64,000 nt of DNA from Escherichia coli (lineage in GTDB: Bacteria; Pseudomonadota; Gammaproteobacteria; Enterobacterales; Enterobacteriaceae). This document shows positions 13,359-64,000 of this stretch, piece after piece (the stretch's first letter is position 1; each line of letters begins with the position of its first letter). The DNA lies in the NCBI RefSeq assembly GCF_030013205.1, contig NZ_CP122648.1; one strand, given 5' to 3'. The notes under the pieces were generated by a model, which searched no databases, was not told where the DNA came from, and saw nothing but the letters and a program-made list of their open reading frames with translations. The position numbers and the translations under genes are program-made.

Positions 13359-13369
13359 CGCGTACTCAG

Positions 13370-13398: not shown

Positions 13399-13399
13399 G

Positions 13400-13434: not shown

Positions 13435-13478
13435 TTGATGCGACAAGCGTCCGTTTAACAACCGGTGGAGTTTCTGTC

Positions 13479-16400
13479 ATGTCCCTGACCCTGAATAAAA
13501 TCCTTGTGTTATGCGCATTGCTGATAAGCGCAATGCTGCCTGGGTGGTCATGGGCAGAATCTGCATGGCAAGACTCTTCAGATACGGTCGGCGAATTTAA
13601 CGGTACCGTGCCCACCGCCGACAGTGCCAGCATACCCGTCTACCAGGGCAGTGTCTTTCTGGATCCTGCAAAGACGCATGAGGTAGCGTTTACCGCTAAA
13701 CCGAGTGAATTCAGCGCGGATATTAGCGTCTCTAAATTGCTCGTCACCAATCCGCAAGACAGAGAAGGCGATATCATTTCCACCCCACGTTGGGAAAACC
13801 AAACGCCACCGACAGTATCTTTAGTTTGGGCGGATGCCGCGACGCCGGACACCTTACTGGACCCACAGCCAGTCGCAGATCGCTCGTTTTGCGCTCAGGG
13901 ACTTGCCGGGCGTTCGCTGGTCGCCTGGGCGCAGCCTGATCCCCAACAGACCATGCCGCTGTTATATTTACTCACCTCGACGGGCTATCCCTATGAAAGT
14001 GTTCTGACGCTCGCCGATCAGAAAGTGACGCTGAAGATTGCGCCCGCGCAGGGTGACCTTATTTCCGTCAGCGCCGCGGGCTATGACGAATCCTCCGGTG
14101 CGGCGAAAACGACGGTTGGCGGCAGTATCACGTTAACGGTCACCACCAAAGATTGCGTCGGTAATGTTGTGGGGAATATTCCTTTTGTTATCAAACGCAA
14201 AGATGCTGAAAACCGCCAGGGTGTGGTGAACAATACTGCGCCGGTAAAACTGGGCACGACCGAATTAACCACCACCGCGACGGAATATCGTGGTACTACC
14301 GATGCGAATGGTGTTGCCACGGTTACGGTCACCCAGGCCAACGGCCCTGGTGTAAAAACGCCGTTGGTCGCGAGCCTTGCGGGTATTGCTCAGGCCAGTG
14401 AAACGGCAGTGATCTTTACCGTCCTCACCAGCCCGGATGTCCCGCAGGCTACAATGTGGGGTCATATGCCCGATACGCTGAAGGCCCGTGATTACACTTT
14501 TAGTCGACCAAAACTGGCGGCGGAAGTCGATAATGAAGACGGTACGGTTAACGATCACAATGAAACCTGGTCCACCTTTACCTGGAGCGGCGCGGATAAA
14601 CATTGCGACATTTTGCCCGGAATGCGTCAGTTCGGTGCGCTGGCGACGGTGGTGCCAACGTCAGTGCAGGATGTGGCTGGTTGGCCGATGCAGGGTAATT
14701 TCTACTGGTCATCACTGGCGGGGATGAGTGGCCAGCACCATGCGGCGGATGTTTCGAACCGCAGCGAAGCGCAAAAACCGGACGATACGACGTTTATTGT
14801 GAGCTGTGTCGATAAAGAAGCGCCCGATGTTGAACCGAAGCTGGTACTGACGCCGGGCAGTTATGATTCGACGATAAAAGCGATGAAAGTAAAGGTGGGG
14901 GAAGAGGCTTCTTTACGCCTGACGATTACCGATAGCAAGAACAACGATCAGCCGCTGGCGTACTACTACTTTTCGCTGCATCTGGATGACGGCGTTAACC
15001 GTAAGAATCAAACTGACACCGCGTGGCAGGCGAATCCGGTACAAATAGCGGGCGGCAGTAATGTCCATCAGGTTGACGCGCATACCTATGAAGGGATCAC
15101 TGATGCTAACGGAGAGGCCTCTCTGACGCTGACCCAGCCAGGCGGTGTGGGGGTGAAAACTCACATCACCGCGAGAATGCGCAGCGATTTTACCGCCTCG
15201 GATGAGAAAGACGTTATTTTTACGGTGATCACCAGCCCTGATTCCGACAAAGCGCGGATGTGGGGACATATGTTGGGCATTATTGAAGCGAATAATATCT
15301 TTAAACGCCCACGGCTGGCGGATGAAACCGACAACGAACTGGGTGCAGTGCGGGAAAATAACGAAGACTGGGCGCTGTTTGATCAGAATAGCAGTATGCA
15401 GGCTGAGTGTGGTTTAGGTCATATTCCGAGCCAAAGCTCATTGCACAGTTTGTTTGCCGCACATCCAGCCAATGTCATCGGCACCGAATATGGCTGGCCA
15501 ACGTTGCAAAAAGCGTATCTTAGTGCGGTGGAAGAGACGTCGCACGCGTCGGTGAACCTGGCCACGGGCAACATCGACACCTATTCCGGCTTTAAGCAAA
15601 ACTACCTTTCTTGTTCGGGCAATGAGATGGTCGCCCAGATTGCTGCGACCACCGATCATGATGTTTCCACAAGCAGCAGAGCGCAGGCTAAAGTGGGTGA
15701 AACGATTACCATGACGGTACGCACCTTTAATGCCTTGAATAATGCGCCCGTGCCGTATACCGCGTTCACCATCACTAAAGATATGGGGAAAAATCGTCAG
15801 GGGCAGAGCACGGGTTTCGATGATCCAACCCGCGGCGCAATCGAGATGAATGGCACGCTCTACGGAACATCGCAACCGTCTTTAGTCTATGCAGGTACTA
15901 CGGATGCGCAGGGTTTTGCTACTGTGGAAATTAAGCAACCGCAAGGTGTGGGCTTAGCGACGCCGCTGAATATTGCGCCTGTAAACTCCTATATTCCCAA
16001 TACTGTTAATTACAATGTGATTTTCACTACGCTCACCAGTCCGGATGCGGTTGGCGCGCAGATGTGGGGGCATATGGATGAGACGATTACCGTCGATGCA
16101 TTAACCTTTGCCCGACCCCGGCTGGCTGCGGAAGTGTCCAGCCCGGACGGCACATTAACGGAAAATAACGAAGTGTGGTCGCGCGTTAGCCAGGCCAACA
16201 CTTCCAGCACCAGTAAAGGTGGCTGTGGTGCCAATATGCTCCCACGCCGTTCCCAGCTTAACGCGCTCTATGATGCTAACAGCGGTAACGCCGTTCAAAC
16301 GGTACACGGTTGGCCAACGCAGCGTCAGCCCTACTGGAGCAGTTCGCCCGCGGATCAGGTGCCGCATTACTACACCATAGCCCTCAACGATGGCGCGCGG

Positions 16401-19400
16401 ACCGTTGGCGGTAGCACGGCGGTTTATGTCAGTTGCCTGACGACGGCTAACAATCCTGCCAGCAGCATTACGCTGGAAGTGGTGGACCCGGCGCAGTGGA
16501 ACGCGGCAGCAAATGCGGCGAAGCTGAAAAAAGGCGAAACGCTACAGGTGAAGGTGACGGTAAAAGATGCTCAGGGCAATCCATTGGGTGATATGCCTTT
16601 TACGCTGAAGCGTGGCGATGGTTATACCCGATCAAACGAAAAACACATTGCCGGTAGCGGTGATGCGCTGGTTGCGCCGGTTGTGATCAATAGTGGCCTG
16701 GCGGATGAAACTTCGCTCAATGATACCGCCGCAGCATACAGCGCGATGACCGGTAGCGATGGCACTAAAATTCTCACTATTACCCGCCCGGATACCCATG
16801 GCACAAAAACGTCGCTGACCGCCGCGCTCTATTCAGACACAACGAAAAAAGCGACCCTCGATACCATTTTTACCGTTGTCACCAGCCCAGACAGCAATAA
16901 AGCGAAAATGTGGGGGCATATGCCGGAAACGGTGACGGCTGCGGATGGAACGGTCTTTAAACGCCCATTATTGTTGAAAGAGTTATCCAGTACGTCGGGT
17001 CGAACAGCGATTGCAGAAGATAATGAGGACTGGGCGCAATTTACCCAAACTCAGGCGACAAGCACATCCTCTAATGGTTGTGGTAGTGAATATGTTCCCT
17101 CTCAGGCCGGGCTGGAGTCATTGTATGAAGCCAACCGCGGCAATGCGATGAAAACGGTTCAGGGCTGGCCCGTCGCCTCAAGTTACCTTACCAGCACGAC
17201 AGGCAGCAGTAGTCTGGAACAGCGTGACTTAAAGGCCGTCAATCTCAGTTCAGGCACCAGTTCGATAATTCCATCGGCCACAAAAGAACTGCTTACCTGC
17301 CAGACGACGCCGATCGTCAAGGCTAGCCAAATCGTTCTTGAGGCTGCGGACCCCACAAAATTTGACAGTACGAATAATGTTGTCAAAGCGAAAAAAGGGG
17401 AAGAAGTCGTGGTTCGCGTGACCACTAAAGATTCGCAGGGTAACCCGGTGGGAAATACCGCGTTTACGCTTAAACGTAACCTTAGCGTCAATCGGGCAAA
17501 TGCGTCTACAACGGTGACAGCAGGCGCGCTCATCGTGACGGATGCCTGGGGTAACACGCAGAGTAATTTTTCCTCAACAACAGCACTGATTTATGGCGTT
17601 ACCGGCGCAGATGGTACGACAACACTTGCACTGAAACAGGACAATACCACGGGTTTAAAAACCGAACTGACCGCCATGCTGGATACAGATAATAACGTAA
17701 AATCAATGCTTCCGGTGGTCTTTACGGTGATAACCAGCCCCGATACCCCTAAAGCAAAATTCTGGGGGCATATGGCCGAAACGATGACCGGTGCAGGCGG
17801 GCTTATTTATAAAAGACCGTTATTGCAAGATGAGCTTTCCGTTACAACCAGTCGAAGCTCTTTTCAGGAAGATGGAGAGAGCTGGTCACTGTTCTCGCCG
17901 GACCAGTCGAACAACACATCTGTAAATGGTTGCGGTGCAGGATATGTCCCGATTGAAAGTGAGCTGGAGTCACTGTATGCCGATGAAGGTTACGTGCCAA
18001 TACATGACGTTACGGGATGGCCTGTATCACGCGCCTATATCTCCAGTACGGTTGTTGCCTATTACACTCAAACATTTAATTTTAAAGCGGTTTCGTTAAA
18101 AACGGGTGATGGAACGGAGGTCATGTCAAGCAGTCTAGGACTGCTAAGTTGTCGGGCTACCCCAGTGGCGGTGACCAGCCACATTATTGTTGAAGCGAAC
18201 GATGCGACACAATTTGTCAAAGTTGACGAAACCCTCAGCGCACTAAAACGGAAAAAAGGTGACGACGCGGTGATTCGCGTGGTGACAAAAGATGCGCAGG
18301 GAAATGTCGTACCAAATGTTCCGTTTATTCTCAAACGTGAAGGATCGACAAATCGCCAGAATGTACAGTTGTCGAACAGAACTATCACTGTAATCAACGC
18401 TGCGGGAACGTCGGCAAGAGTGGATACTCCATCAATCTCCCTTTATGCGGTGACAGGTGCAGACGGGACAGCCACGTTTACGGTAAAGCAGGATGATTCT
18501 ATAGGCCTGGTAACCAATGTGTACGCTCAGGCCTATCAGTCGAGCCTGGAATCCAACAAATTACCCGTGATGTTTACCGTGATAACCAGCCCGGATACCC
18601 CCCTGGCAAGTTACTGGGGGCATATGGCGGAAACGTTCACTACGCGTTCTGGTACTGCCTTCAAACGCCCCTTACTCTCTGCTGAAAGATCGTCGGGCCA
18701 GTCGTTTATAGAAGACAATGAAGAGTGGGCCGTGTTGAGATCGGCAACAAAGGGGGATATCGATAAAAGCGGGTGCGATGTACATTATCAACCACTGTTA
18801 AGCGAACTACAGGCATTGTACGACGAACACCCAAGTCGTGCGATAAAGACCGATCTGGGTATTCCGGTAAATAGCTACTGGTGGGCTTACGACATGGTGG
18901 CATATGCGGGTAACTGGTACGATCAATATATTTATCTGTTAAATGGATCAAGTGGAAGAGCGTCTTCAACCACCTCGGCATTAATGCTGTGCCTGGTAAA
19001 CCCTCATCCAGAGGCGGCTTCTATTGAAATGACCTCAACGGCGGAGGATGCAACGAAAACGGCCAGCAATGATGGCAGGCCCAGCGCAACAGCGAAGAAG
19101 GGAGAGGTTATCCCGATGACTGTTACGGTGCGAGATAGCGCAGGCAATCCACTGCCAGGTGCCAGCTTTAACCTTAAACGAGGAACTGCGCTGAACCGCG
19201 CTAAAGCTGCGTACGATGCCTCTGCAGATGATCTTACCATCATACCTGTGGAACCTACTGGGGTAACGTCAATCTTGTATGGGGATGGGACGCAGGCTCT
19301 TCTGAAGACAGGGAGCGATGGTAAAGCTACGTTTGAGGTCAGCCAGAATAGCAGTTATGGGCTGTCAACGCCGCTCAGCGCAGAACTCATGCGCGATACC

Positions 19401-21521
19401 TCGAAAAGCGTCACGCTGGATGTCATTTTCACGGTGATAACCAGCCCGGATTCGCCAAAAGCGAAATACTGGGGCCATATGCCGGAAACGTTTACCAGTT
19501 CGGCAGGCGTGACCTTCAAGCGCCCATTACTGGCAGCGGAAGCGACTACGGGGAGCTCGGTAAACGGTAATAATGAGACATGGTCATATATATATAGTAC
19601 TCAAAAAGCGACGGCAGATTGTTCGCTGGAATATCAACCGCGCCTCAGCGAATTGCAGGGGTTATATGACGATCACCCAAACGGGGCGTTAACGAAAGAT
19701 CTGGGGTTGCCGATAGCGTCAGGAAACTGGTGGATTTATGAATTGCTTAACTCCAATGGTAGCTCCTGGTATTATCAGGTCTTTAACCTAAGTACGGGAC
19801 GAGTATCATCCGCACTCTCTCCGGTTGCTCTAATGCTCTGCCTGGCACAGCCTCACTCTAAGCCGTCAAGCGTTACCCTGACTTCAATAGCATTTGATGA
19901 GACGAGAACCGCAAGTAACGGCGGCACACCTTCGGCATCGGCGAAAAAGGGCGAGACAATCCCGTTAGTCGTGACAGTAAAAGACCAAAATGGCAACCTG
20001 GTGAGTGGTGAGGGCGTGACGCTTCAGCGGGCGCAGGCGAAAAGTCGTTCAGGAATTAGGCCCTCATCGTTGGCAGATGATCTTATTGTAGATGTTGTCA
20101 CACCGACAGCAACCCGTATTTCTTTTGCTCAGGATACGGCAAAATGGCTTGGTTTTACCGGCAGTGATGGCACAGTGACGTTCAATGTTACGCAAAACGC
20201 CACCACCGGCCTGGCAACGCCGTTTACGGTCTCGCTTGCACAAGATCCGCAGATCACGTCAAACTTGGACCTGATATTTACCGTGGTCACCAGCCCTGAC
20301 GCCCAGGATGCCGACTACTGGGGTCATATGCCAGAAACGGTGACAGCGGCAAATGGAACCGTCTTTGAACGACCGAAATTGTGGAAGGAGCTGCCATCGA
20401 CCTCCGGGGTAAATAAAACCAATAACAATAATGAGGACTGGCCCTATTTTTCGTCAACCACTAAAGCAAATGCCAGCCTCAGCCCTTGTGAGGAAGCCCG
20501 GCAACCGTTGCTCAGCGATATGAAGTCACTGTATCAACGTTATCCCAATAACACCCTTACGACGGAAACTGGCTGGTCAGTTTATTATTACTGGTGGGCG
20601 CAGGATAAGACTACAGATGGTAAAAATCAGTCGCTCAATATGAAAGATGGCACAACGACATTGAATGGTAATGCCGCTTATCAGGCGTGTCTGGTGTCTG
20701 CGCGCGCGACGGTTTCCAGCGTCACACTGACCTCAACAGCGTTTGATGCTGACAGCCAGGCGGCGAAAGTGAAAAAAGGCGAAGCCATGCCCGTTACCGT
20801 GACGGTGAAAGACAGCGCCGGGAATACGGTACCGAATGTGGAATTTACTTTGAAACGTGGCGATGCATCGCCGCGTAACGCTGGGGCGACGTTGTATGGT
20901 GATGTGGTGGCGATGGACGATCTCATCGTTCAGCCGTTATCTGGTTCGGCTGTTACGCTGAGTGAAAGCGGTAATACCATTAGTGGCATGACAGGCGCGG
21001 ATGGGACGGCAAGTTTTACGCTCCGCCAGGATAATACCCCTGGTTATAAAACGCCACTGACGGTTACTCTGGCTAATTACGCTTCCGCGACAGACACGCT
21101 GGACGCTATTTTTACGGTACCAACCAGCCCGAATGTTTCCTCGGCGCACTTTTGGGGACATATGGCAGACACTGTAGTGGTGAATGGTAAATCGCTACAT
21201 CGACCGTTGTTAACGACAGAATTGCCGTCCGGGGCTAATCCCGTATCCTCACCGATTATTAACTACGAAAACTGGGCTTCTGCACATATCATTGATGCCA
21301 GTAAATGGGATATTGCAAGGCAGTGTGGCAGCATAGAAAATGCACCGACATACAATGAATTAGAGTTGTTGCACACTGTTTTTAATTCACTGGGATGGCC
21401 GTCTTCACCAAGTTTTCCTTATTTGTCCTCTCAACAGTGTGGGATGGACGAAGGCACTGGAGCACAGGATTGTAGTATCACGCTAATGAATAAACCGGGT
21501 CTGGTGACCTGCTTCCAGTAA
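13479..21521 (+). CDS. ratA: RatA/RatB-like giant repetitive surface protein (Ig-like + lectin-like modules)
   Basis: 2680 aa with signal peptide ...GWSWA. Nine tandem modules each contain a conserved block (I/V)FTV(I/V)TSPDxxxAxxWGHMxET...RP(L/R)L...(N/E)(E/D)W...C(G)...GWP...YW(S/A). The position after sinI matches the CS54-type island. Confidence 0.75.
14410..21150 (+). repeat. nine in-frame tandem modules (~0.80-0.85 kb period) inside ratA
   Basis: The FTVxTSPD motif recurs near 14415, 15215, 16020, 16866, 17720, 18572, 19425, 20275 and 21110. Confidence 0.85.
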
Positions 21522-24653: not shown

Positions 24654-26231
24654 ATGACGGAAAACATTCATAAGCATCGCATCCTCATTCTGGACTTCGG
24701 TTCTCAGTACACTCAACTGGTTGCGCGCCGCGTGCGTGAACTGGGTGTTTACTGCGAACTGTGGGCGTGGGATGTGACAGAAGCACAAATTCGTGACTTC
24801 AACCCAAGCGGCATTATTCTTTCCGGCGGCCCGGAAAGCACCACCGAAGAAAACAGCCCGCGTGCGCCGCAGTATGTCTTTGAAGCAGGCGTACCGGTAT
24901 TCGGCGTTTGCTATGGCATGCAGACCATGGCAATGCAGTTGGGCGGTCACGTTGAAGCCTCTAACGAACGTGAATTTGGCTACGCGCAGGTTGAAGTCGT
25001 AAACGACAGCGCACTGGTTCGCGGTATCGAAGATGCGCTGACTGCAGACGGTAAACCGCTGCTCGATGTCTGGATGAGCCACGGCGATAAAGTTACCGCT
25101 ATCCCGTCCGACTTCGTCACCGTAGCCAGCACCGAAAGCTGCCCGTTTGCCATTATGGCTAACGAAGAAAAACGCTTCTATGGTGTACAGTTCCATCCGG
25201 AAGTGACTCACACCCGCCAGGGTATGCGCATGCTGGAGCGTTTTGTGCGTGATATCTGCCAGTGTGAAGCCCTGTGGACGCCAGCGAAAATTATCGACGA
25301 CGCCGTAGCTCGCATCCGCGAGCAGGTAGGCGACGATAAAGTGATCCTCGGCCTCTCTGGTGGCGTGGATTCCTCCGTAACCGCAATGCTGCTGCACCGC
25401 GCTATCGGTAAAAACCTGACTTGCGTATTCGTCGACAACGGCCTGCTGCGTCTCAACGAAGCAGAGCAGGTTCTGGATATGTTTGGCGATCACTTTGGTC
25501 TCAATATTGTTCACGTTCCGGCAGAAGATCGCTTCCTGTCAGCGCTGGCTGGCGAAAACGATCCGGAAGCAAAACGTAAAATCATCGGGCGCGTTTTCGT
25601 TGAAGTATTCGATGAAGAAGCGCTGAAACTGGAAGACGTGAAGTGGCTGGCGCAGGGTACTATCTACCCTGACGTTATCGAATCTGCGGCGTCTGCAACC
25701 GGTAAAGCACACGTCATCAAATCTCACCACAACGTGGGCGGCCTGCCGAAAGAGATGAAGATGGGCCTGGTTGAACCGCTGAAAGAGCTGTTCAAAGACG
25801 AAGTGCGTAAGATTGGTCTGGAGCTGGGCCTGCCGTACGACATGCTGTACCGTCATCCGTTCCCGGGACCAGGCCTTGGCGTTCGTGTTCTGGGTGAAGT
25901 GAAGAAAGAGTACTGTGACCTGCTGCGCCGCGCTGACGCCATCTTCATTGAAGAACTGCGTAAAGCGGACCTGTACGACAAAGTCAGCCAGGCGTTCACC
26001 GTCTTCCTGCCAGTACGTTCCGTTGGCGTAATGGGCGATGGTCGTAAGTATGACTGGGTTGTCTCTCTGCGTGCTGTCGAAACCATCGACTTTATGACCG
26101 CACACTGGGCGCATCTGCCGTACGATTTCCTCGGTCGCGTTTCCAACCGCATTATCAATGAAGTGAACGGTATTTCCCGCGTGGTGTATGACATCAGCGG
26201 CAAGCCGCCAGCTACCATTGAGTGGGAATGA
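24654..26231 (+). CDS. guaA: GMP synthase (glutamine-hydrolysing)
   Basis: 525 aa with a GATase domain (GVCYGMQ) and ATP-PPase motif SGGVDSS. The last 4 codons plus the stop lie inside the prophage attL core. Confidence 0.97.
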
Positions 26232-26233
26232 TT
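26217..26233. repeat. attL core (guaA 3' end)
   Basis: ATTGAGTGGGAATGATT, identical to 55362-55378. It covers guaA codons I-E-W-E-stop. Confidence 0.85.
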
Positions 26234-30978: not shown

Positions 30979-31274
30979 GCCGCGTCCCTCTGCCCATCAA
31001 GCTGATCAGCCAGATCCCAGCGGGCGATAATTGCCATTGCCTCGCGCCGGTAGGCATCCATTAGTTCTTCGAACTCAGGGCTGTCTTTAGCGGCCTCCAG
31101 TACTTCCTGGCGAACGCCTTTAACTGTTACAACGTCGAAAGTTGATGCCAGTTGATGAAGCCGGATACTCTCAATCAGTTCAACTTGTCGGTCATATAGC
31201 TGTTCTGACAGACGGTAGTCCTTGTCGAATGCCAGCATGATTTTTTGAAGATTTTTCTGCTGATTAACGTTCAT
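30975..31274 (-). CDS. hypothetical early protein
   Basis: ORF with its start placed at ATG 31274 (MNVNQQKNLQ...). Its stop overlaps the exonuclease start. Confidence 0.55.
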   Translation of the reverse strand: MNVNQQKNLQKIMLAFDKDYRLSEQLYDRQVELIESIRLHQLASTFDVVTVKGVRQEVLEAAKDSPEFEELMDAYRREAMAIIARWDLADQLDGQRDAA

Positions 31275-31276
31275 TA

Positions 31277-31429
31277 TCAGCCCTCCCATATCTCGTTATC
31301 GTTGGCCACATCGCGAGCTTCTTTGCTGACGAAAGCCCACTTAATGCCTTCCTGTAAGGTGCGGAACTTCCAGCTCATGAATCCGCATGCAGTAACGCAG
31401 TACCAACCGTTGATGATTTTCCACTGCAT
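31277..31429 (-). CDS. hypothetical 50-aa early protein (first gene of leftward operon)
   Basis: Hand-translated MQWKIINGWYCVTACGFMSWKFRTLQEGIKWAFVSKEARDVANDNEIWEG, below the ORF-track cutoff. A GAGGT Shine-Dalgarno lies 10-14 nt upstream, and the ORF sits just downstream of palindrome site B. Confidence 0.45.
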   Translation of the reverse strand: MQWKIINGWYCVTACGFMSWKFRTLQEGIKWAFVSKEARDVANDNEIWEG

Positions 31430-31448
31430 AACTTGTTACCTCGGTCTG

Positions 31449-31463
31449 TTACCGTTGAGGTAA
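31449..31463. promoter_or_regulatory. phage palindrome site B (TTACC-GTTGA-GGTAA), leftward early promoter
   Basis: Perfect half-sites, 19 nt upstream of the 31429 start. The -10-like AATTAT abuts it on the upstream side. Confidence 0.65.
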
Positions 31464-31510
31464 TAATTATGCGTATATGGTTTGATGTCAATAGATATGA
31501 GTTAAAAAAA

Positions 31511-31525
31511 TTACCCGTTAGGTAA
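31511..31525. promoter_or_regulatory. phage palindrome site C (TTACC-CGTTA-GGTAA)
   Basis: Perfect half-sites, located between the repressor-gene terminator and site B. Confidence 0.6.
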
Positions 31526-31535
31526 TCGAATAGGC

Positions 31536-31561
31536 AATAAAAAAGCCGCCATAAGGCGGCT
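31536..31561 (-). terminator. intrinsic terminator of the repressor gene
   Basis: Minus strand reads AGCCGCC-TTAT-GGCGGCT followed by TTTTTATT. Confidence 0.8.
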
Positions 31562-31582
31562 TACTTACTGAAAAATATGGTT

Positions 31583-32167
31583 TTATTGTTTGTTTTTTTC
31601 GTTCTGGTTGATGACAAATTCAATGTAACTTTCGATCTTTGCTTTCTCGGTTTCGGGTAACAATGCGTAGCGCGAGCGATCATAGTTGATGGTCGCAGGG
31701 TCGTGCGGGTGAATCAGTAATTCATAGCCGTGACGCCCGAATGCGGATGCAACATTCTCCAGGGTGGAAATGGAAACGCTGACCTCATTGTTTAACAGGC
31801 GGCTGATTGTCACCTGGGCTACGCCGGATGCGCGGTGAAGTTTTCCCTGTGTTGAAAGGTCGCGGCTTTCGCTCATCCAGCGTTCCAGGTTGTGAGCCGC
31901 CAGCTGGCCAATGTCGCTTGGGCCGACAGGCTGAAAACCTTCCTGAGAAAGCGAGCGATCGATATCAAGCCAGTTACGGGGTTTATTGGCGGCAGCTTCA
32001 ATTTTTCGTGCAACCTGGTCGCCGATAACCTTCTTGCCAAGAGCCCAGCGGTTTACCAGATTTGCCTGAGTTCCAAGTTTTTCAGCCATCCGCGTCTGAA
32101 CACCATTGAATTCACGGTCGATCAAGTCGTTGAGATTTTGCCTGCGGACGTCCTGGATACTTTTCAT
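31583..32167 (-). CDS. prophage repressor candidate with two XRE-type HTH domains
   Basis: 194 aa. HTH 1 is QTRMAEKLGTQANLVNRWALGKK. HTH 2 is QGKLHRASGVAQVTISRLLNNEVSVSISTLENVASAFG. Divergent from a Cro-like gene across a region with three palindrome sites. I see no S24 peptidase-like C-terminus. Confidence 0.7.
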   Translation of the reverse strand: MKSIQDVRRQNLNDLIDREFNGVQTRMAEKLGTQANLVNRWALGKKVIGDQVARKIEAAANKPRNWLDIDRSLSQEGFQPVGPSDIGQLAAHNLERWMSESRDLSTQGKLHRASGVAQVTISRLLNNEVSVSISTLENVASAFGRHGYELLIHPHDPATINYDRSRYALLPETEKAKIESYIEFVINQNEKNKQ

Positions 32168-32222
32168 TTTCTGGAAAATCGCCTCATATATGAATCAGTA
32201 GATGATTCAATTTAAAGCAATA

Positions 32223-32237
32223 TTACCCAACAGGTAA
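32223..32237. promoter_or_regulatory. phage palindrome site D (TTACC-CAACA-GGTAA)
   Basis: Perfect half-sites in the repressor/cro intergenic region. On the repressor strand GGTAATATT supplies the -10-like TAATAT. Confidence 0.65.
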
Positions 32238-32239
32238 AT

Positions 32240-32254
32240 GCACCTCATAGGTAA
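32240..32254. promoter_or_regulatory. phage palindrome site D' (GCACC-TCATA-GGTAA)
   Basis: Degenerate left half (2 mismatches), 2 nt from site D. Confidence 0.45.
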
Positions 32255-32270
32255 CTATCCTTGATTTTTG

Positions 32271-32285
32271 TTACCTTATGGGTGA
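32271..32285. promoter_or_regulatory. phage palindrome site E (TTACC-TTATG-GGTGA), overlaps rightward promoter
   Basis: One mismatch. It overlaps a candidate promoter with -35 TTGTTA (32268-32273), a 17-nt spacer and -10 TATTAT (32291-32296), ahead of the cro-like ATG at 32322. Confidence 0.6.
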
Positions 32286-46271: not shown

Positions 46272-46832
46272 ATGAAGGCAATTATATTTTTTGTTTCAAT
46301 ATTGATGTCTGCATTTTCTTTTGCAGGGCAAAATGTTAAATGCGAACTTCAATACTTTGGAGATAGCGATAAATTTAAGGTAACTCAGTTTTCTTTTATG
46401 GGGATTCCATCTGATTCATACCTTTATACCTGTGCCGACTGTGGAGGCATCCAGATAAACGTGTTCCCATCTATTCAGACTGTTGCTTCCTACTCATTTG
46501 AAAACAACATTGATTTCGAAAGGAAAATCAATGCTGAATACAACAGAAAAGACATAGCTAAACTTGAGATGGAAAACGTTACTCAAGGCGGGAGAATAAA
46601 ATATTCAATCACCGATACTGGTTTGGCAGAGTTTTACCCAGAGGGCAAAAAGATAAGCTACCTCTACTTTTTAGCCAAGCAACAAAATGGTAAAGAACAA
46701 GTAGGTTATTCAGGATTTGTTACCTCTAACGGGGATAAGTCATGCTCAATTATTGCGACATATCCAGGAAAAGAAATTTCTTTTCTGGGAAGTAAATCTT
46801 TAAGCTACTTTATGAATCATATATCAATGTAG
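46272..46832 (+). CDS. secreted/periplasmic protein, unknown function (accessory gene)
   Basis: 186 aa with signal peptide MKAIIFFVSILMSAFSFA-GQ. Visibly AT-rich compared with the upstream virion genes. It starts 2 nt after the preceding stop. Confidence 0.65.
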   Translation: MKAIIFFVSILMSAFSFAGQNVKCELQYFGDSDKFKVTQFSFMGIPSDSYLYTCADCGGIQINVFPSIQTVASYSFENNIDFERKINAEYNRKDIAKLEMENVTQGGRIKYSITDTGLAEFYPEGKKISYLYFLAKQQNGKEQVGYSGFVTSNGDKSCSIIATYPGKEISFLGSKSLSYFMNHISM

Positions 46833-46845
46833 CGTGACATGTCAC

Positions 46846-46870
46846 AGGCCGCTTTCGCGGCCTTGTTTTT
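46846..46870. terminator. terminator after the 186-aa gene
   Basis: AGGCCGC-TTTC-GCGGCCT followed by TGTTTTT. Confidence 0.8.
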
Positions 46871-47030
46871 AACGAATGCCACCGCCACCCGGGCGGGAAT
46901 CCGCAGAACGCCCACCGCAGCGGGAGCCGTCAGCGGCAGTATCGCTGTCGTGCTGACAACGACCGGCAAAGGCCTGAGTTGAAGCTACCAGAGACAACAA
47001 AACGAACAGTGCAGCAAATGCTTTTTTCAT
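46869..47030 (-). CDS. small secreted Gly/Arg-rich peptide (53 aa)
   Basis: Start placed at ATG 47030. Signal peptide MKKAFAALFVLLSLVASTQAFA, then GRCQHDSDTAADGSRCGGRSADSRPGGGGIR (2 Cys). The Shine-Dalgarno is weak. Confidence 0.5.
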   Translation of the reverse strand: MKKAFAALFVLLSLVASTQAFAGRCQHDSDTAADGSRCGGRSADSRPGGGGIR

Positions 47031-47043
47031 TGTGAAGTTTCCA

Positions 47044-47071
47044 TCTATAAGCCACCTCAATGTGGCGTCAA
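47044..47071 (-). promoter_or_regulatory. candidate sigma70 promoter for the small-peptide gene
   Basis: Minus strand reads TTGACG, 16 nt, TATAGA. The predicted leader is very short. Confidence 0.4.
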
Positions 47072-47100
47072 TGAGTGTAGCACTGGCTTTTGTTTCGTCC

Positions 47101-47124
47101 ACAAAAAAAGCCCGCAGCGCGGGC
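47101..47124 (-). terminator. intrinsic terminator of the 69-aa/288-aa operon
   Basis: Minus strand reads GCCCGC-GCT-GCGGGC followed by TTTTTTTGT. The stem overlaps the stop codon. Confidence 0.8.
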
Positions 47125-47990
47125 TATTCTTTTTTGCTATTTCTTTGATATATATTTCTTCCATTTTTGGTAACACGAATAACGTGCCCCCTGGATTCTA
47201 CTTTGTTATTTGTTGCTTTATATACTTCAAAATCAAACCATGATATATAACTTATTTCGTCAATAGACACCATGATCTCAAGTCCTGGCACTTTCTTTCT
47301 GCTAATTCCTCTTATTGCTGCAGTCCGCTTGACCTGTATTTCTCCTGGATAAGCATTAGTGAATGTGACAGATAAGTTGTCTTTGTTCCTGTATCCTGAC
47401 ATTAAAGGAACAAAAGATATGTGCTGATGCGGACCCTGATTTTCCGTTGGTTCACCAGAACCATTTATTATTCCAACATACACTTTGTTTGATGATAAAG
47501 TAATCAGCATTGGTCGTTTAGGATCCGATTCAATAGCATCAAGCAATAGTAAGTCTAAAGAACCTTGCGAGTAAGTTTTTCGCAGTACTCTGGCCTTCAT
47601 TGCCTCTGTTTTTTGCTCGTAAATATCACGTTTATAAAAACAACCAAGAAGAAAATCTTTCACCCACACAACAGACACATAACACAAAGAGAAGCAAATG
47701 GATGTGGCTGAGAGAAGAAGCAGCCACATGTAAATTCTATCTGTTTCTGGTTTTGATGTTACATTAAAAGTTTCCACCATATCGTGAACTAGGTGAAAAT
47801 CAGGCCATTTATATTTTATAGCGGCTGCAATTATTACTGATGCAACAAGGCAATATGTACCTAGTGCCGCTACTTTCATATAAAGAAGCTGGCCTTCGTG
47901 TCGGTATAAACGGAAATAATGATACTGGTTAGCGGTTATCATAATATAACCGCTAACCAGGATTGGGATAATTAGAAGAGCTAGCAACAC
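47124..47990 (-). CDS. membrane protein with ~170-aa C-terminal soluble domain, unknown function
   Basis: 288 aa with a GTG start preceded by AAGGAAG. Three or four N-terminal TM segments (LLALLIIPILVSGYIMI, VAALGTYCLVASVIIAAAI, IYMWLLLLSATSICFSLCYVSVVWV), then a soluble domain (...PMLITLSSNKVYVGIINGSGEP...SFVPLMSGYRNKD...). AT-rich. Confidence 0.7.
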   Translation of the reverse strand: MLLALLIIPILVSGYIMITANQYHYFRLYRHEGQLLYMKVAALGTYCLVASVIIAAAIKYKWPDFHLVHDMVETFNVTSKPETDRIYMWLLLLSATSICFSLCYVSVVWVKDFLLGCFYKRDIYEQKTEAMKARVLRKTYSQGSLDLLLLDAIESDPKRPMLITLSSNKVYVGIINGSGEPTENQGPHQHISFVPLMSGYRNKDNLSVTFTNAYPGEIQVKRTAAIRGISRKKVPGLEIMVSIDEISYISWFDFEVYKATNNKVESRGHVIRVTKNGRNIYQRNSKKE

Positions 47991-48199
47991 TACTTCCTTA
48001 CAGTGGCAAGATCCTGTTTAACAATTGCAGCAGCGAGACGACGCATCTCCTTAACCTCAGGAAGCTCAGAAATTTGCTGTGATGAGATATATACTCCACC
48101 ACGCTTGTTAACCTGCGCTGACGCCGGAACTTCTGCATTTTTTGCCTGAGGGCTGGGTGCATTATCCCTCGTTTTTGTACGAGCGAACCAAAATCCCAT
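47990..48199 (-). CDS. 69-aa protein, unknown function (first gene of the two-gene operon)
   Basis: ATG with a GGAGGA Shine-Dalgarno. Its stop TAG overlaps the GTG of the 288-aa gene (TAGTG). Confidence 0.6.
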   Translation of the reverse strand: MGFWFARTKTRDNAPSPQAKNAEVPASAQVNKRGGVYISSQQISELPEVKEMRRLAAAIVKQDLATVRK

Positions 48200-48306: not shown

Positions 48307-48999
48307 TCAGAAGAACCCTGCCTTGTCGTTGATGTACTCCGCGTGCGTCTGGATATCACGCAGGCATTTGCTCACACCGACGATGTAGCAGAACATGGTG
48401 GTCAACTCCGCCGCCGCGCCCGATACGTCGTGCCCGTCTTCCTGTAACTGGTTCAGCAGATTCATCAGCAGTGAGTTCTCCGTCAGGCCGAGAACACCAG
48501 ACGGAGAATGAATCAGGCTGCGGTAGCCGGGCTTCAGCGGGGCACTGTAGGTTTTGTTCTCTATCTTCATTGCCTGCATCACTGCTGATGCTGTGGCGTT
48601 GGCTACCTGGTCGGCAACCATCTTTATGCGTTCTTCCTGCGGGAGCGAGTTTTTAATGTAACTTCCGGTGCGGCGGATCTGAGGAAGAACCTCACCTGTA
48701 ACCCATTCAAGAAATCTGAATGCTCTCGTTCCCTCAGTCATTGCCTCTTTGCAACGCAGAATAAGGATGTAGAGACCTGATTCTGAAACGATGGATAGTT
48801 CTTGTATTCCACCAGGGGTCTGTATTGAATACAGCCCCTTTTTGTTCCAGCCTTTTTTATCAAGTTTTCTCGCTTGTGTAACATCAATATTCAAAGCATT
48901 GCACACATCTTTGGTGACAAACCAAGGTTCTCCGTCAATCATGAACATACGGATCTGGCAGGATGACTCAAAGGAAAAGATGGAAGGTTTGGTATTCAT
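48307..48999 (-). CDS. BRO-N domain protein (antirepressor-like) with uncharacterised C-terminal domain
   Basis: Start placed at ATG 48999 (MNTKPSIFSFESSCQIRMFMIDGEPWFVTKDVCNALNI...), 230 aa. The N-terminus is a typical Bro-N/KilA-N-type DNA-binding domain. The C-terminal 72 aa are paralogous to the 85-aa ORF at 50145-50402. Confidence 0.75.
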   Translation of the reverse strand: MNTKPSIFSFESSCQIRMFMIDGEPWFVTKDVCNALNIDVTQARKLDKKGWNKKGLYSIQTPGGIQELSIVSESGLYILILRCKEAMTEGTRAFRFLEWVTGEVLPQIRRTGSYIKNSLPQEERIKMVADQVANATASAVMQAMKIENKTYSAPLKPGYRSLIHSPSGVLGLTENSLLMNLLNQLQEDGHDVSGAAAELTTMFCYIVGVSKCLRDIQTHAEYINDKAGFF

Positions 49000-49149
49000 G
49001 GCGATCACCTTTGTAGTTAGGTTAATCACCACCGCTGAGACCAATCAGATGGTGGTGAACTGTGCAGAGTTGGTCTTACCGGCTACAAAGGAACCCGGCG
49101 CACCTTTCGGTGCCCCCACACAGCCCACCATAGAATAGGTGCGCTTTAC

Positions 49150-49262
49150 ACATAAAAAAACCGCTTATGCGGCATATGTGCCTCTGTAGTAATCCGGGAG
49201 ACCAATCCCGGCACTGGATTTTGCCAGTGCCCGATTACTATGGCACAAGAGGAGTGCGATGT
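49150..49262 (-). promoter_or_regulatory. structured leader upstream of the BRO-N gene (three-way junction plus weak terminator)
   Basis: Outer stem 49187-49194 (TAGTAATC) pairs with 49233-49240 (GATTACTA) and encloses two abutting hairpins, CCGGGA-GACCAA-TCCCGG and CACTGG-ATTTTG-CCAGTG. On the minus strand this is followed by CCGC-ATAA-GCGG plus seven U (49154-49172). Confidence 0.4.
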
Positions 49263-49266
49263 AAAT

Positions 49267-49281
49267 TTACCGCAAAGGTAA
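49267..49281. promoter_or_regulatory. phage palindrome site J (TTACC-GCAAA-GGTAA)
   Basis: Perfect half-sites. On the minus strand the candidate promoter is TTGATT, 17-18 nt, TATCAT, with the -10 abutting the site (TATCATTACC). Confidence 0.6.
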
Positions 49282-49359
49282 TGATAAACGCGAAGAAATA
49301 TTAAAATCAACCGTATTTGGTTGATTGCGTTTAACGCTTGATCACCTGAAAGCAAGATA

Positions 49360-49374
49360 TTACCTTTAAGGTAA
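49360..49374. promoter_or_regulatory. phage palindrome site K (TTACC-TTTAA-GGTAA)
   Basis: Perfect half-sites, 20 nt upstream of ATG 49395. Confidence 0.6.
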
Positions 49375-49394
49375 TGTTATTGTGAGGAAAGGCA

Positions 49395-50123
49395 ATGGAA
49401 GTTTTCTGGGTAGTTGTTGGTGTGGTTGCGGTGATTATTTACGTTATCAACCAGAACAAGACTAAGATCTCTGATCGTACGGTCGTTAATCATAACAAAA
49501 CGATAAAGACTGAAGATGGGGAGATAACGATTAATCGTACACAGGTGATAGAACACACCTCCACTCAGTTTCAAAAAACGGGAGATAATGCGCCTAATAT
49601 TTCCGTACCTCCTGCTTATGATAGCGCGGTAATCCAGACATATTATAAACAGCAGGAGTTAGCAAAAGAGAGGCAACTGATTCAGCCAAAGCCGTTTACA
49701 GCTGAGCTTCCACCCGGAGTGTCAACGCGTCCGGCATATCATGGAAGATTCCCTGGTGATGACATATCGTCTCAGTCATCTAAAAAAGCACCTCAGGCAG
49801 TATCAGAGCCAGCAAGAATACCTTCTGTATCGCCGCCAAAAGAAGAATCAGCTAACAGAGTTTCAAGTGGTAGCAAGCAGTGCTTGCGATGCAGAATAAA
49901 CCTTCCATATGAAAAATTCAGGAAATCGTCAAAAAATCCAGATGGATTGACTAAGTGGTGTGCAAGGTGTCTCGATGGCCCAAAGAATACACGCCATATG
50001 AAGTGGTGCCCAATTTGTAATGTCCGCAGAAAACGAACTAGCTTTTACCCTAATAATCAAAATGCGGACGGCTTAATGGCATGGTGCAAAACGTGCTGGG
50101 ACGAGCACAAAGCGAAACGATAG
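49395..50123 (+). CDS. membrane-anchored protein with two C-terminal zinc-ribbon-like repeats
   Basis: 242 aa. N-terminal TM segment MEVFWVVVGVVAVIIYVI, a low-complexity linker, then two units CxxC-x(n)-DGLxxWCxxC (CLRC...DGLTKWCARC and CPIC...DGLMAWCKTC). Confidence 0.65.
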   Translation: MEVFWVVVGVVAVIIYVINQNKTKISDRTVVNHNKTIKTEDGEITINRTQVIEHTSTQFQKTGDNAPNISVPPAYDSAVIQTYYKQQELAKERQLIQPKPFTAELPPGVSTRPAYHGRFPGDDISSQSSKKAPQAVSEPARIPSVSPPKEESANRVSSGSKQCLRCRINLPYEKFRKSSKNPDGLTKWCARCLDGPKNTRHMKWCPICNVRRKRTSFYPNNQNADGLMAWCKTCWDEHKAKR

Positions 50124-50146
50124 GCCGCTAGAGCGGCCTTTTCTTT
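50122..50146. terminator. bidirectional terminator between convergent genes
   Basis: AGGCCGC-TAGA-GCGGCCT followed by TTTTCTTTAT. Confidence 0.75.
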
Positions 50147-50402
50147 ATGTGGTTTGTTTTCGTAATTGTTCGGCACAATAGTCGAGATGTGTTTGCAGAT
50201 CCTGCATAGACATCTGTGAGCTGGTGACGTAGTTAATCAGTGCAGTCAGTTCGGCAAGTGGGCCATCGACATTAAATCCATCCTTATCGAGATCCCGGAG
50301 TAATTTCATCAAGTGCGATCCCTCCACCAGTGATCTGACGCCTCCCGGCGTGTGAATCCTTTCGGTAAATCCGTCTTCCAGTGGATAGTGATACTGCTGC
50401 AT
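50145..50402 (-). CDS. 85-aa protein paralogous to the BRO-N protein C-terminal domain; candidate SOS-controlled antirepressor
   Basis: Start placed at ATG 50402 with a GGAGAA Shine-Dalgarno. 31 of 72 residues are identical to the BRO protein C-terminus in an ungapped hand alignment. A LexA box lies about 20 nt upstream. Confidence 0.65.
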   Translation of the reverse strand: MQQYHYPLEDGFTERIHTPGGVRSLVEGSHLMKLLRDLDKDGFNVDGPLAELTALINYVTSSQMSMQDLQTHLDYCAEQLRKQTT

Positions 50403-50421: not shown

Positions 50422-50441
50422 AACTGTATATTTATACAGTA
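50422..50441. promoter_or_regulatory. LexA (SOS) box
   Basis: AACTGTATATTTATACAGTA compared with the consensus TACTG(TA)5CAGTA. CTGT-N8-ACAG is intact, and ACTGTATA-TT-TATACAGT is a perfect dyad. Confidence 0.75.
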
Positions 50442-50478: not shown

Positions 50479-50493
50479 TTACCCGAAAGGTAA
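50479..50493. promoter_or_regulatory. phage palindrome site L (TTACC-CGAAA-GGTAA)
   Basis: Perfect half-sites in the divergent region between the 85-aa gene and the tailspike gene. GGTAATATC provides the -10-like TAATAT toward the tailspike. Confidence 0.6.
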
Positions 50494-55361: not shown

Positions 55362-55378
55362 ATTGAGTGGGAATGATT
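55362..55378. repeat. attR core
   Basis: ATTGAGTGGGAATGATT, identical to the guaA 3' end at 26217-26233. Confidence 0.85.
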
Positions 55379-56421: not shown

Positions 56422-56697
56422 GTGGCTTCTGTTTCTATCAGCTGTCCCTCCTGTTCAGCTACTGACGGGGTGGTGCGTAACGGCAAAAGCACCGCCGGAC
56501 ATCAGCGCTATCTCTGCTCTCACTGCCGTAAAACATGGCAACTACAGTTCACTTACGCCGCCTCTCAGCCCGGTACGCACCAGAAAATCATTGATATGGC
56601 CATGAATGGCGTCGGATGTCGCGCCAGTGCACGCATTATTGGCGTTGGCCTCAACACGATTTTCCGCCACTTAAAAAACTCAGGCCGCAGTCGGTAA
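56422..56697 (+). CDS. insA: IS1 InsA
   Basis: 91 aa, [40 protein letters not shown]... Confidence 0.95.
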
Positions 56698-57119
56698 CCT
56701 CGCGCATACAACCGGGCAGTGATGTGATTGTCTGCGCTGAAATGGACGAACAGTGGGGCTACGTCGGTGCTAAATCACGTCAGCGCTGGCTGTTTTACGC
56801 GTATGACAGGATGCGGAGGACGGTTGTGGCGCACGTCTTCGGTGAACGCACTCTGGCCACACTGGAGCGTCTTCTGAGCCTGCTGTCGGCCTTTGAGGTC
56901 GTGGTATGGATGACGGATGGCTGGCCGCTGTATGAATCACGCCTGAAGGGAAAGCTGCACGTTATCAGCAAGCGTTATACTCAGCGCATTGAGCGGCATA
57001 ACCTGAATCTGAGACAACATCTGGCAAGGCTGGGACGGAAGTCACTGTCGTTCTCAAAATCGGTGGAGCTGCATGACAAGGTCATCGGGCATTATCTGAA
57101 CATAAAACACTATCAGTAA
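56616..57119 (+). CDS. insB: IS1 InsB' frame (expressed as the InsAB' transposase by -1 frameshift)
   Basis: ORF overlapping the insA 3' end. The slippery TTAAAAAAC run is at 56671-56679. ...[21 protein letters not shown]... Confidence 0.9.

Positions 57120-60454: not shown

Positions 60455-64000
<3,546 letters not shown>

Follow-up and report, generated by a model that had tools for sequence, protein, structure and literature searches.

Two candidate antirepressors with one shared Ant-type domain, behind a LexA box and behind an isrK/C4 RNA leader, in an epsilon15-like prophage of Escherichia coli

The window analysed here is a 64,000-nucleotide (64 kb) stretch of an Escherichia coli genome that includes a defective prophage of the epsilon15/phiV10-like type (Uetakevirus) located at guaA. 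Flanked by the ejection-protein and tailspike genes of this prophage, in a position syntenic with P22 immI, two genes on the same strand, separated by 1146 bp (about 1.1 kb in the preliminary description), encode an 85-aa protein (AntS, the product of ant) and a 230-aa protein that combines a BRO-N domain with a C-terminal domain resembling AntS (BRO-N-AntC; Table 1). The BRO-N-AntC gene starts at the ATG at position 48999, and the mechanically delimited ORF reaches back to a TTG at 49044. The BRO-N domain is readily identifiable, with 51.4 bits against a gathering score of 25.6; an AF2 single-sequence model of the entire 230-aa protein had a pLDDT of 34, too low to be used.

Table 1. Features of the ant locus and of the rep region, in window coordinates
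Feature	Coordinates	Strand	Description
rep, 194-aa two-HTH repressor	31583..32167	-	5D50_A 'Repressor', E=4e-42, residues 1-190
rep-cro intergenic operators (putative)	32223..32285		TTACCCAACAGGTAA; TTACCTTATGGGTGA with one mismatch
TTACC-N5-GGTAA	48226..48240		separates the BRO-N gene from the 69-aa and 288-aa ORFs downstream of it
BRO-N-AntC, 230 aa	48307..48999	-	BRO-N domain, helical linker, Ant-like C-terminal domain
Ant-like C-terminal domain of BRO-N-AntC	48310-48561	-	residues 147-230; similarity to Ant
BRO-N domain of BRO-N-AntC	48682-48954	-	residues 16-106; Pfam PF02498
C4 target sites in BRO-N mRNA	49008..49044	-	UUGGUCU 49044-49038; CUACAAAGG 49016-49008, over Shine-Dalgarno
C4 antisense RNA	49048..49135	-	Rfam RF01695, 78.6 bits (gathering 45), E=4.6e-15, full length
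isrK-like sRNA / a1b1 target element	49154..49230	-	Rfam RF01394, 74.7 bits (gathering 50)
Intrinsic terminator at end of isrK-like element	49160-49173	-	terminator scan
Promoter-like TTTACA-17-(TG)CATAGT	49237..49265	-	promoter scan; -10 ends 7 nt ahead of isrK match
TTACC-N5-GGTAA, putative Rep operator	49267..49281		abuts -35 of the isrK-C4-BRO-N promoter
TTACC-N5-GGTAA	49360..49374		20 bp upstream of the 242-aa ORF; also one in TL-2011b
242-aa ORF	49395..50123	+	membrane helix at N-terminus, Cys-rich region at C-terminus; an insertion that separates the two ant genes
GC-rich hairpin terminator	50122..50139		common to ant (-) and the convergent 242-aa ORF (+); terminator scan
ant (AntS), 85-aa stand-alone antirepressor	50145..50402	-	orthologue of SPC32H Ant / epsilon15 gp19 / phiV10 p24
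LexA (SOS) box TACTGTATAAATATACAGT	50423..50441	-	between promoter region and ant ribosome-binding site; core CTGT-N8-ACAG 50424-50439
TTACC-N5-GGTAA, putative Rep operator	50479..50493		between ant and the divergent tailspike gene; abuts -35-like TTGCAA

The preliminary description, based on a hand count of 31 identical residues in 72, proposed that the C-terminus of the BRO-N protein aligns with the 85-aa ORF without gaps. BLASTP reproduces this alignment as one ungapped segment (residues 149-222 versus 2-75) with 31/74 identities, 43/74 positives and E=8e-20, far past chance; lack of significance had been named beforehand as one outcome that would refute the idea. The two domains share 42% identity, and the residues common to both Ant subfamilies in the alignment include I16, H17, G21, D41, G42, E51, Y58 and H72. 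Judged from their sequences, the 85-aa ORF and the C-terminal segment of the BRO-N protein are true paralogues, and purifying selection acts on both copies, with dN/dS of 0.06 (small ant gene) and 0.17-0.27 (fused domain).

AntS is 88% identical to SPC32H Ant and matches chain E ('Anti-repressor protein') of PDB 5D50 with E=1.3e-47 (phmmer) as well as phrog_450 (PHROG 450; 1.4e-47); the fused domain (residues 149-225 of the BRO-N protein) is matched to the same chain with E=9e-14. The domain has no counterpart family in Pfam or NCBIfam, and neither the two Ant proteins nor the ORFs next to them had a match in NCBIfam or PADLOC. Thus, the original impression that the domain lies outside named families stands as far as Pfam and NCBIfam are concerned, but the domain is that of an already published, structurally solved antirepressor, and AntS itself, by these similarities, is the characterised LexA-controlled antirepressor Ant of epsilon15-like phages. 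Antirepression of Rep by SPC32H Ant and its control by LexA were reportedly described by Kim and Ryu (2013, J Virol 87:11775) and Kim et al. (2016, PNAS 113:E2480), with the structures 5D50, a co-crystal of Ant and Rep, and 5D4Z. Two secondary sources depict SPC32H Ant as a tetramer bound to two dimers of Rep via their C-terminal tetramerisation domain, by which the Rep tetramer is broken up (PMC9638917; PMC9986798).

The LexA box lies 20 bp upstream of the AntS ATG, and its core is one of only two CTGT-N8-ACAG sequences in the entire window. At the equivalent position before ant, the same core is found in SPC32H, epsilon15, phiV10, TL-2011b, Tyrion and ZX5, and a near-consensus box is kept before the small gene in all seven compared genomes. 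As initially noted, only the short gene has such a box: the scan of the 64 kb window for CTGT-N8-ACAG detected none at or close to the BRO-N gene.

The same genome encodes the cognate non-cleavable Rep, with two HTH motifs and a C-terminal tetramerisation domain, a protein that shows 100% identity with phiV10 p40 as well as with ZX5 ORF21. In SPC32H, the small gene occupies the same position between the ejection-protein and tailspike genes and has the same LexA box, the layout of Rep is the same as in the window, and the palindrome TTACC-N5-GGTAA is identical; however, the SPC32H Rep is only about 42% identical to that of the window, and the BRO-N gene, the isrK/C4 leader and a second Ant domain are all lacking in SPC32H. 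The window contains nine exact copies of the palindrome, every one within the prophage, and, with one mismatch allowed, 17 matches versus 1.1 expected. Each of the two genes indeed has its own palindrome upstream, at 50479-50493 for ant and at 49267-49281 and 49360-49374 for the BRO-N gene. The first of these sites is conserved in a six-genome alignment, and its epsilon15 counterpart (19895-19911) is annotated as 'protein_bind: repressor' in the GenBank record; a palindrome also occupies the position equivalent to 49267-49281 in phiV10, ZX5, Tyrion and TL-2011b. From the epsilon15 annotation and these positions, we infer that the palindromes are Rep operators. The single palindrome before AntS would have to be weak because tight repression by Rep would block SOS triggering. 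The suggestion that the two copies share the repressor as a partner gains backing from homology, with 5D50_E matched by both copies and 5D50_A by the 194-aa protein, and Rep is the likely common target of both Ant domains.

The conserved stretch of about 300 nt before the BRO-N gene was considered as coding, starting from the TTG at 49044, but this was rejected because two Rfam RNAs match it and the BRO-N coding region is less well conserved. The match to c4-a1b1 (RF03163) that overlaps the isrK-like element scored 39.9 bits, under the gathering score of 46.7. The -10 region of the promoter before isrK shows no variation in a five-genome alignment. The loop of the C4 RNA (nt 45-53, CCUUUGUAG) pairs at 9 of 9 positions with CUACAAAGG, the ribosome-binding site of the BRO-N gene, and AGACCAA (C4 nt 60-66) is exactly complementary to UUGGUCU immediately downstream as well as to a second copy of this motif at 49205-49199, inside the isrK element. 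C4 was found in each compared genome that has the BRO-N gene, including phiV10, TL-2011b, Tyrion and ZX5, and is absent from SPC32H and epsilon15, both of which are devoid of that gene; among the compared genomes, isrK and C4 occur only alongside it. This antisense-RNA leader, overlooked in the first reading of the sequence, is probably what actually controls the BRO-N gene.

The arrangement resembles immI of P1/P7 (c4-icd-ant) and isrK-orf45-anrP of Gifsy-1, where a1b1/isrK and C4 likewise precede an antirepressor gene, C4 is complementary to sites on either side of itself, among them the ribosome-binding site of the gene that follows, and a repressor-type operator is located at the promoter. 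The Gifsy-1 locus is riboregulated in this way, and AnrP induces the Gifsy-1 prophage (PMC4825925). Unlike these loci, that of the window has no icd, and translational coupling is not evident: the sole candidate for an icd/orf45-like ORF is a 28-codon ORF (49045-49131) inside C4, with a stop 46 nt before the ATG of the BRO-N gene and no overlap with the latter. The effector domain, unlike those of P1 Ant and AnrP, is of the SPC32H Ant type, and the sign of RNA control differs among the known systems, P1 C4 being a repressor versus IsrK of Gifsy-1, an activator. A similar wiring is reportedly present in the anti-immunity locus of N15, where, according to Mardanov and Ravin (2007), antC is driven by a promoter controlled by a C4-like RNA and by a LexA-controlled promoter. 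In that case as well, antirepressor expression directed at one repressor responds both to SOS and to an immunity circuit based on antisense RNA, but both inputs converge on one gene, unlike in the window, where they are split over two paralogous proteins. The available part of Lemire et al. (PMC3121763), as regards Gifsy GfoA/GfhA, mentions no small-plus-large antirepressor pair like that of the window.

We consider it probable, given these similarities, that the prophage possesses two antirepressors with one Rep-binding domain, AntS triggered by SOS and BRO-N-AntC riboregulated, both acting against the same Rep. Under this scenario, LexA would occupy the box before ant until its removal upon DNA damage permits synthesis of AntS; by homology with SPC32H Ant, an AntS tetramer would assemble on the C-terminal tetramerisation domain of Rep and split the DNA-binding Rep tetramer into dimers, releasing Rep from the TTACC-N5-GGTAA operators. 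BRO-N-AntC would be a second antirepressor for this Rep, without SOS wiring, transcribed from the promoter that abuts a Rep-type operator through the terminated isrK-like leader and C4. By analogy with ant of P1/P7 immI and anrP of Gifsy-1, it would be kept off both at transcription, by Rep, and at translation, by C4/IsrK, the latter being suggested by the complementarity of the C4 loop to the gene's own ribosome-binding site. It would then be made only once repression begins to fail, or upon entry into a cell lacking these regulators, and could lock in induction by feed-forward action, serve as an anti-immunity factor, or do both. Both this timing of expression and the binding of the fused domain to the window Rep appear likely. 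The 42% identity to AntS would leave room for a shift in the specificity of the fused domain.

Indirect functional support comes from phage vB_EcoP_ZX5 (ZX5), the source of the only experiment on a BRO-N fusion with an identical C-terminal domain. Its ORF4 is the counterpart of the window gene at the equivalent locus (as are phiV10 p23 and TL-2011b AEW24558), with the C-terminal 84 residues, as well as Rep, 100% identical to those of the window. Overexpression of ORF4 as a GST-fusion lowered the number of lysogens from 1e9 to 1e6, a drop of about 1000-fold, and reduced the rep transcript by 75% (PMC9782041). The authors called ORF4 an 'anti-repressor' and noted its Bro-N domain alone, with ORF6, the small ant, labelled 'hypothetical'; they drew no link between the ORF4 C-terminus and the small ant or SPC32H Ant and did not describe the RNA leader (PMC9782041). 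These data bear on the earlier idea that one copy competes with or titrates the other, that is, that the fused paralogue co-assembles with AntS or competes for Rep and so damps or tunes SOS induction, as an anti-antirepressor or buffer. Mixed oligomers are conceivable given the many invariant positions in common, SPC32H Ant is described as homotetrameric (PMC9638917), and the two genes occur together nearly always in E. coli. However, overexpression of the fusion drove ZX5 towards lysis, the effect expected of an antirepressor, instead of stabilising lysogeny (PMC9782041), and the gene sits behind control elements that elsewhere serve bona fide antirepressors (P1 ant, Gifsy-1 anrP). Competition or titration finds no support, and we regard a modulator role as very improbable.

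The fused-type domain was found in 19 of the approximately 35 phage-collection records that contain both Rep and Ant, and all 19 also encode AntS and Rep, so that the co-occurrence suggested at the outset as a subject for a survey is borne out. Among 5426 complete E. coli genomes, the AntS region is present in 528 and the fused-type C-terminal DNA in 469, and AntS and BRO-N-AntC genes co-occur almost invariably. Comparison of genomes shows the BRO-N gene to be dispensable: it is missing in SPC32H, epsilon15 and PAS61 (the Rep of the latter is identical) and carries a frameshift in phiV10 as well as in O157 typing phages 9 and 10. It is also mosaic; the BRO-N domain of the window protein shows 69% amino-acid identity to that of ZX5 ORF4 and 45-67% nucleotide identity along that stretch and is apparently a different cassette. 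Together with the defective state of the window prophage, such losses and mosaicism are what would be seen if the BRO-N gene were a decaying moron left by recombination of immI cassettes, with a purely historical similarity to AntS. This we find very improbable: the window gene has kept an intact reading frame, the dN/dS of the fused domain is low, the C-terminal DNA is 95-99% identical within intact annotated genes of the 469 E. coli genomes, the RNA leader is strongly conserved, and ORF4 has a phenotype in ZX5 (PMC9782041).

The same dispensability for the phage's own life cycle (PAS61, phiV10) is compatible with the fused domain having different targets, namely other repressors, such as the Salmonella- or Klebsiella-type Rep of relatives that are heteroimmune, or those of unrelated co-resident prophages, so that BRO-N-AntC would be an anti-immunity or cross-talk factor similar to P22 Ant or Fels-1 FsoA. 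The limited identity of the two domains, the synteny with P22 immI and the TL-2011b version with a P22_AR_N head behind sar RNA all fit this possibility; antirepressors that inactivate non-cognate repressors in trans are on record (PMC3121763); and a role in trans is plausible because the window prophage itself is defective. We nevertheless consider different targets unlikely. The fused-type domain occurs only in genomes that also have this Rep family and AntS, and AntC divergence roughly follows that of Rep (77% and 78% identity, respectively, with Tyrion, and 54% and 45% with Klebsiella phages). Furthermore, overexpressed ORF4 altered the lysogeny and the rep transcription of ZX5 itself (PMC9782041).

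Exhaustive profile search, as opposed to word-indexed searches, which gave only close, mostly stand-alone relatives, revealed the fused architectures. Within the same prophage family, the C-terminal module, at 94-100% identity, is carried on BRO-N, P22_AR_N, AntA and ORF6N heads; more distant versions are joined to Rha. In TL-2011b, a third copy of the module, fused to P22_AR_N, lies behind a sar RNA. BRO-N/KilA-N-type modular phage regulators (COG3617) are said, by Iyer, Koonin and Aravind (2002), to be built in this manner, and here, too, an N-terminal head (BRO-N, P22_AR_N, AntA, Rha, ORF6N) is combined with an interchangeable C-terminal module; the difference is that the module in the window matches no Pfam family and is tied to a solved antirepressor-repressor complex. 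The presence of one module on several heads is expected if the module is a Rep-specific effector. A broader and quite speculative reading is that this SPC32H Ant-like module of about 80 aa is the universal Rep-inactivating effector of epsilon15-like prophages, with heads and leaders (LexA box, isrK/C4, sar) serving as interchangeable input cassettes. The stand-alone and fused paralogues might even co-assemble, because Ant acts as a tetramer, and integrate SOS and immunity-RNA signals in one mixed complex on Rep.

BRO-N 'antirepressors' are annotated in large numbers, with a mechanism that is mostly obscure, and the locus described here, present in roughly one complete E. coli genome in ten, ties one of their C-terminal modules, by sequence, to a solved complex. 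If the universal-effector reading is correct, this would, for the first time, assign a concrete job to the C-terminal portion of a BRO-N 'antirepressor'. With a module that moves among five kinds of N-terminal heads and three control elements, the locus offers a testable picture of temperate phages rewiring one repressor to several inputs. The design is tidy and largely known; it refines established biology and introduces no new principle.

The 242-aa ORF that separates the two ant genes matches phrog_6762 (1.7e-149) and, weakly, Stc1. It is missing from phiV10 and ZX5, appears as a misc_feature in TL-2011b, and is cargo outside the switch.

The preliminary description placed two ORFs with similar products about 1.1 kb apart on the same strand: one encodes AntS, a stand-alone protein of 85 aa, and the other BRO-N-AntC, a protein of 230 aa in which the same kind of domain follows a BRO-N head. 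Indeed, 1146 bp separate the two genes, and BLASTP aligns residues 149-222 of BRO-N-AntC with residues 2-75 of AntS without gaps (31 of 74 identical, E=8e-20). This similarity is genuine and has biological meaning, and the dN/dS values (0.06 for AntS, 0.17-0.27 for the fused domain) indicate purifying selection on both copies. The most likely explanation, and one that we consider probable, is that these are two antirepressors for one repressor, the two-HTH protein Rep.

Features of the window discussed in the text
Feature	Coordinates	Strand	Details
sroE sRNA (host)	4859-4950		116.6 bits
Row of very large ORFs (host)	10119-21521		one of 2680 aa at 13479-21521
att core ATTGAGTGGGAATGATT	26217-26233		guaA 3' end
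Palindrome pair	31449/31511		62 bp apart
rep	31583-32167	-	194 aa
Palindrome pair	34572/34634		62 bp apart
Second CTGT-N8-ACAG core	37348
Low-GC cargo	46272-48199		GC 0.41
BRO-N-AntC gene	48307-48999	-	230 aa from ATG at 48999
Divergent BRO-N cassette	48743-49006
CUACAAAGG	49016-49008		contains BRO-N gene Shine-Dalgarno
UUGGUCU, downstream of C4	49044-49038
28-codon ORF	49045-49131	-	wholly within C4
C4 antisense RNA	49048-49135		Rfam, 78.6 bits (gathering score 45); full-length
isrK-type sRNA	49154-49230		Rfam, 74.7 bits (gathering score 50); 3' end is an intrinsic terminator
UUGGUCU, in isrK element	49205-49199
Palindrome at BRO-N leader	49267-49281
242-aa ORF	49395-50123	+	between the ant genes
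AntS gene	50145-50402	-	85 aa
LexA box TACTGTATAAATATACAGT	50441-50423		near-consensus; 20 bp 5' of AntS ATG
att core ATTGAGTGGGAATGATT	55362-55378		other prophage boundary
IS1 (insA / insB frames)	56422-57119		~1 kb beyond attR
ppx and ppk (host)	60455-63962		after IS1

The shared domain was initially assigned to no named family, and no Pfam or NCBIfam family covers it; because of this, and because the matching PHROG 450 is labelled 'unknown function', it went unrecognised. However, what looked like an unknown domain is an antirepressor with a solved structure: AntS matches PDB 5D50 chain E, 'Anti-repressor protein' (E=1.3e-47), and Rep matches chain A of the same entry, 'Repressor' (E=4e-42). 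AntS is 88% identical to the product of the SPC32H gene annotated ant, which Kim & Ryu reportedly found in 2013 to be under LexA repression. The LexA box noted earlier at the short gene is present, and is retained 5' of ant in SPC32H, epsilon15, phiV10, TL-2011b, Tyrion, and ZX5; the 64 kb window contains only one other, distant CTGT-N8-ACAG core. Given the conservation of this box and the homology to SPC32H Ant, the AntS half of the finding is already known biology. According to two papers that cite the structural work, SPC32H Rep is a DNA-binding tetramer, and an Ant tetramer binds two Rep dimers via the C-terminal tetramerisation domain of Rep, breaking the tetramer (PMC9638917; PMC9986798). 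AntS of the E. coli lineage shares 84-88% identity with its Salmonella-lineage counterparts and is far more conserved than its target Rep, for which the figure is only ~42% (54% in the N-terminal domain, 28-33% in the middle, and 43% in the C-terminal part). This suggests that what Ant recognises on Rep is a conserved feature, and Ant may act across immunity types.

BRO-N-AntC combines a Pfam Bro-N domain (residues 16-106, 51.4 bits) with ~80 C-terminal residues that match phrog_450 (3.2e-37) and 5D50_E (9e-14). ORF4 of phage ZX5 ends in the same 84 residues, and the two Rep proteins are identical as well. When ZX5 ORF4 is overexpressed, lysogens fall from 1e9 to 1e6 PFU-equivalents per mL, and the rep transcript drops by 75%; the authors noted only the Bro-N domain in ORF4 and left the small ant unnamed (PMC9782041). 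The BRO-N protein is an annotated, partly tested antirepressor. The earlier proposal that one Ant copy titrates, or competes with, the other is unsupported and runs contrary to this phenotype, and we consider it quite improbable.

Across five phages, conservation is higher in the ~300 nt 5' of the BRO-N start than in the BRO-N coding sequence; this stretch contains an isrK-type sRNA followed by a C4 antisense RNA. The preliminary description captured the palindrome before this gene but missed the RNA leader. The C4 loop CCUUUGUAG is the exact complement of CUACAAAGG, and C4 AGACCAA is complementary to UUGGUCU both downstream and upstream, within the isrK element. The isrK match begins 7 nt after the end of a promoter-like TTTACA-17-TGcCATAGT, which adjoins a palindrome. 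The P1/P7 immI operon has the layout a1b1 / c4 / a2b2, which the BRO-N-AntC leader matches. The same layout is found in the Gifsy-1 isrK-orf45-anrP locus, where the mRNA is not translated before IsrK has acted in trans and the prophage is induced by the antirepressor-like AnrP (PMC4825925). All compared genomes with the BRO-N gene also have isrK and C4; both RNAs are missing from SPC32H and epsilon15, which lack the gene. The 28-codon ORF within C4 may be the counterpart of Gifsy-1 orf45; since its stop codon lies 46 nt 5' of the BRO-N ATG, translational coupling is not evident. If both proteins act on one Rep, AntS would be the SOS trigger, and BRO-N-AntC would be a riboregulated immI-type antirepressor, probably repressed by Rep, that strengthens induction or works on infection.

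Each of the two genes is preceded by its own palindrome, as first noticed, and at both sites this is TTACC-N5-GGTAA. There are nine exact copies in the window, every one within the prophage, and 17 matches with at most one mismatch, against 1.1 expected. The palindromes occupy equivalent places in all compared genomes (the rep-cro spacer, the early-operon flanks, and 5' of ant), and the equivalent sites in the epsilon15 GenBank record carry a repressor-binding annotation; they are putative Rep operators. Pairs of palindromes exactly 62 bp apart flank the early operons, a spacing kept in SPC32H, epsilon15, and phiV10 and compatible with a looping Rep tetramer.

Only 65 of 1.84 billion representative proteins matched the Ant-like domain in an exhaustive profile search, most of them stand-alone proteins of 82-95 aa; in several, the domain is C-terminal behind Bro-N, AntA, Phage_pRha, or ORF6N heads. 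In the phage collection, the domain is restricted to ~35 epsilon15-like records, the same ones that hold Rep; AntS accompanies the fused-type copy in all 19 records with the latter, a co-occurrence for which a survey had been proposed, and the Salmonella phage members have AntS only. The main rival explanation, that the fused copy has diverged towards other repressors and has a role in anti-immunity or cross-talk, appears possible but unlikely. Among 5426 complete E. coli genomes, 528 contain the AntS region and 469 the fused-type C-terminal DNA, at 95-99% identity and in genes annotated BRO-N, 'phage antirepressor Ant', or ORF6N.

At the nucleotide level, the window and ZX5 share 80-92% identity over the RNA leader, 45-67% over the BRO-N domain, and 93-100% between residue ~93 and the stop codon. 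Because a divergent BRO-N cassette is thus flanked by a conserved leader and 3' half, we place a recombination joint near residue 93; the C-terminal module is constant within this Rep family, with heads and control elements exchanged. In TL-2011b, a third copy (31231-32244) lies behind a sar antisense RNA (RF00262, 44.8 bits); its 314-aa product has a P22_AR_N head (2.9e-45) and a C-terminal module 94% identical to the fused domain of the window. This single phage carries three antirepressor cassettes with three control types. The BRO-N gene is dispensable: PAS61 has an identical Rep but no copy of the gene, and in phiV10 (19554-20230, annotated p23 plus p22) and O157 typing phages 9 and 10 a frameshift interrupts it inside the Ant-like domain. 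This would suit a relic, a reading that the selection signal on the fused domain and its conservation make quite improbable. In the literature searched, we found no prior statement of the paralogy of AntS and BRO-N-AntC, of a C-terminal module common to several head types, or of isrK/C4 control of the second ant copy; these appear to be new.

The region is part of an epsilon15/phiV10-group prophage (genus Uetakevirus); in a megablast search, 48200-50600 matches TL-2011b, EC.W1-9, phiV10, ZX5, and others. The att core is as published (PMC9782041) and delimits only ~29 kb (26217-55378). The prophage is, by its gene content, defective, because, relative to phiV10, it has no genes for terminase, portal, or protease and lacks most capsid genes and part of p15; it retains rep, both ant genes, and the tailspike and lysis genes. 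The two ant genes have the ejection-protein genes on one side and the tailspike gene on the other, the position held by immI in P22. The ORF inserted between them, missing from phiV10 and ZX5, encodes an N-terminal membrane helix and a C-terminal Cys-rich region, matches phrog_6762 and, weakly, Stc1 and an HNH / endonuclease VII-like PHROG, and has its own palindrome 20 bp 5'. Low-GC cargo, located where P22 has sieA, separates the ejection-protein gene from the BRO-N gene; its ORFs, with zero PADLOC or NCBIfam matches, encode 186 aa (+; N-terminal signal-like sequence), a 288-aa membrane protein (phrog_3630), and 69 aa (phrog_5739). Beyond the prophage boundaries lie an IS1 element, host ppx and ppk, the sroE sRNA, and a row of very large host ORFs.
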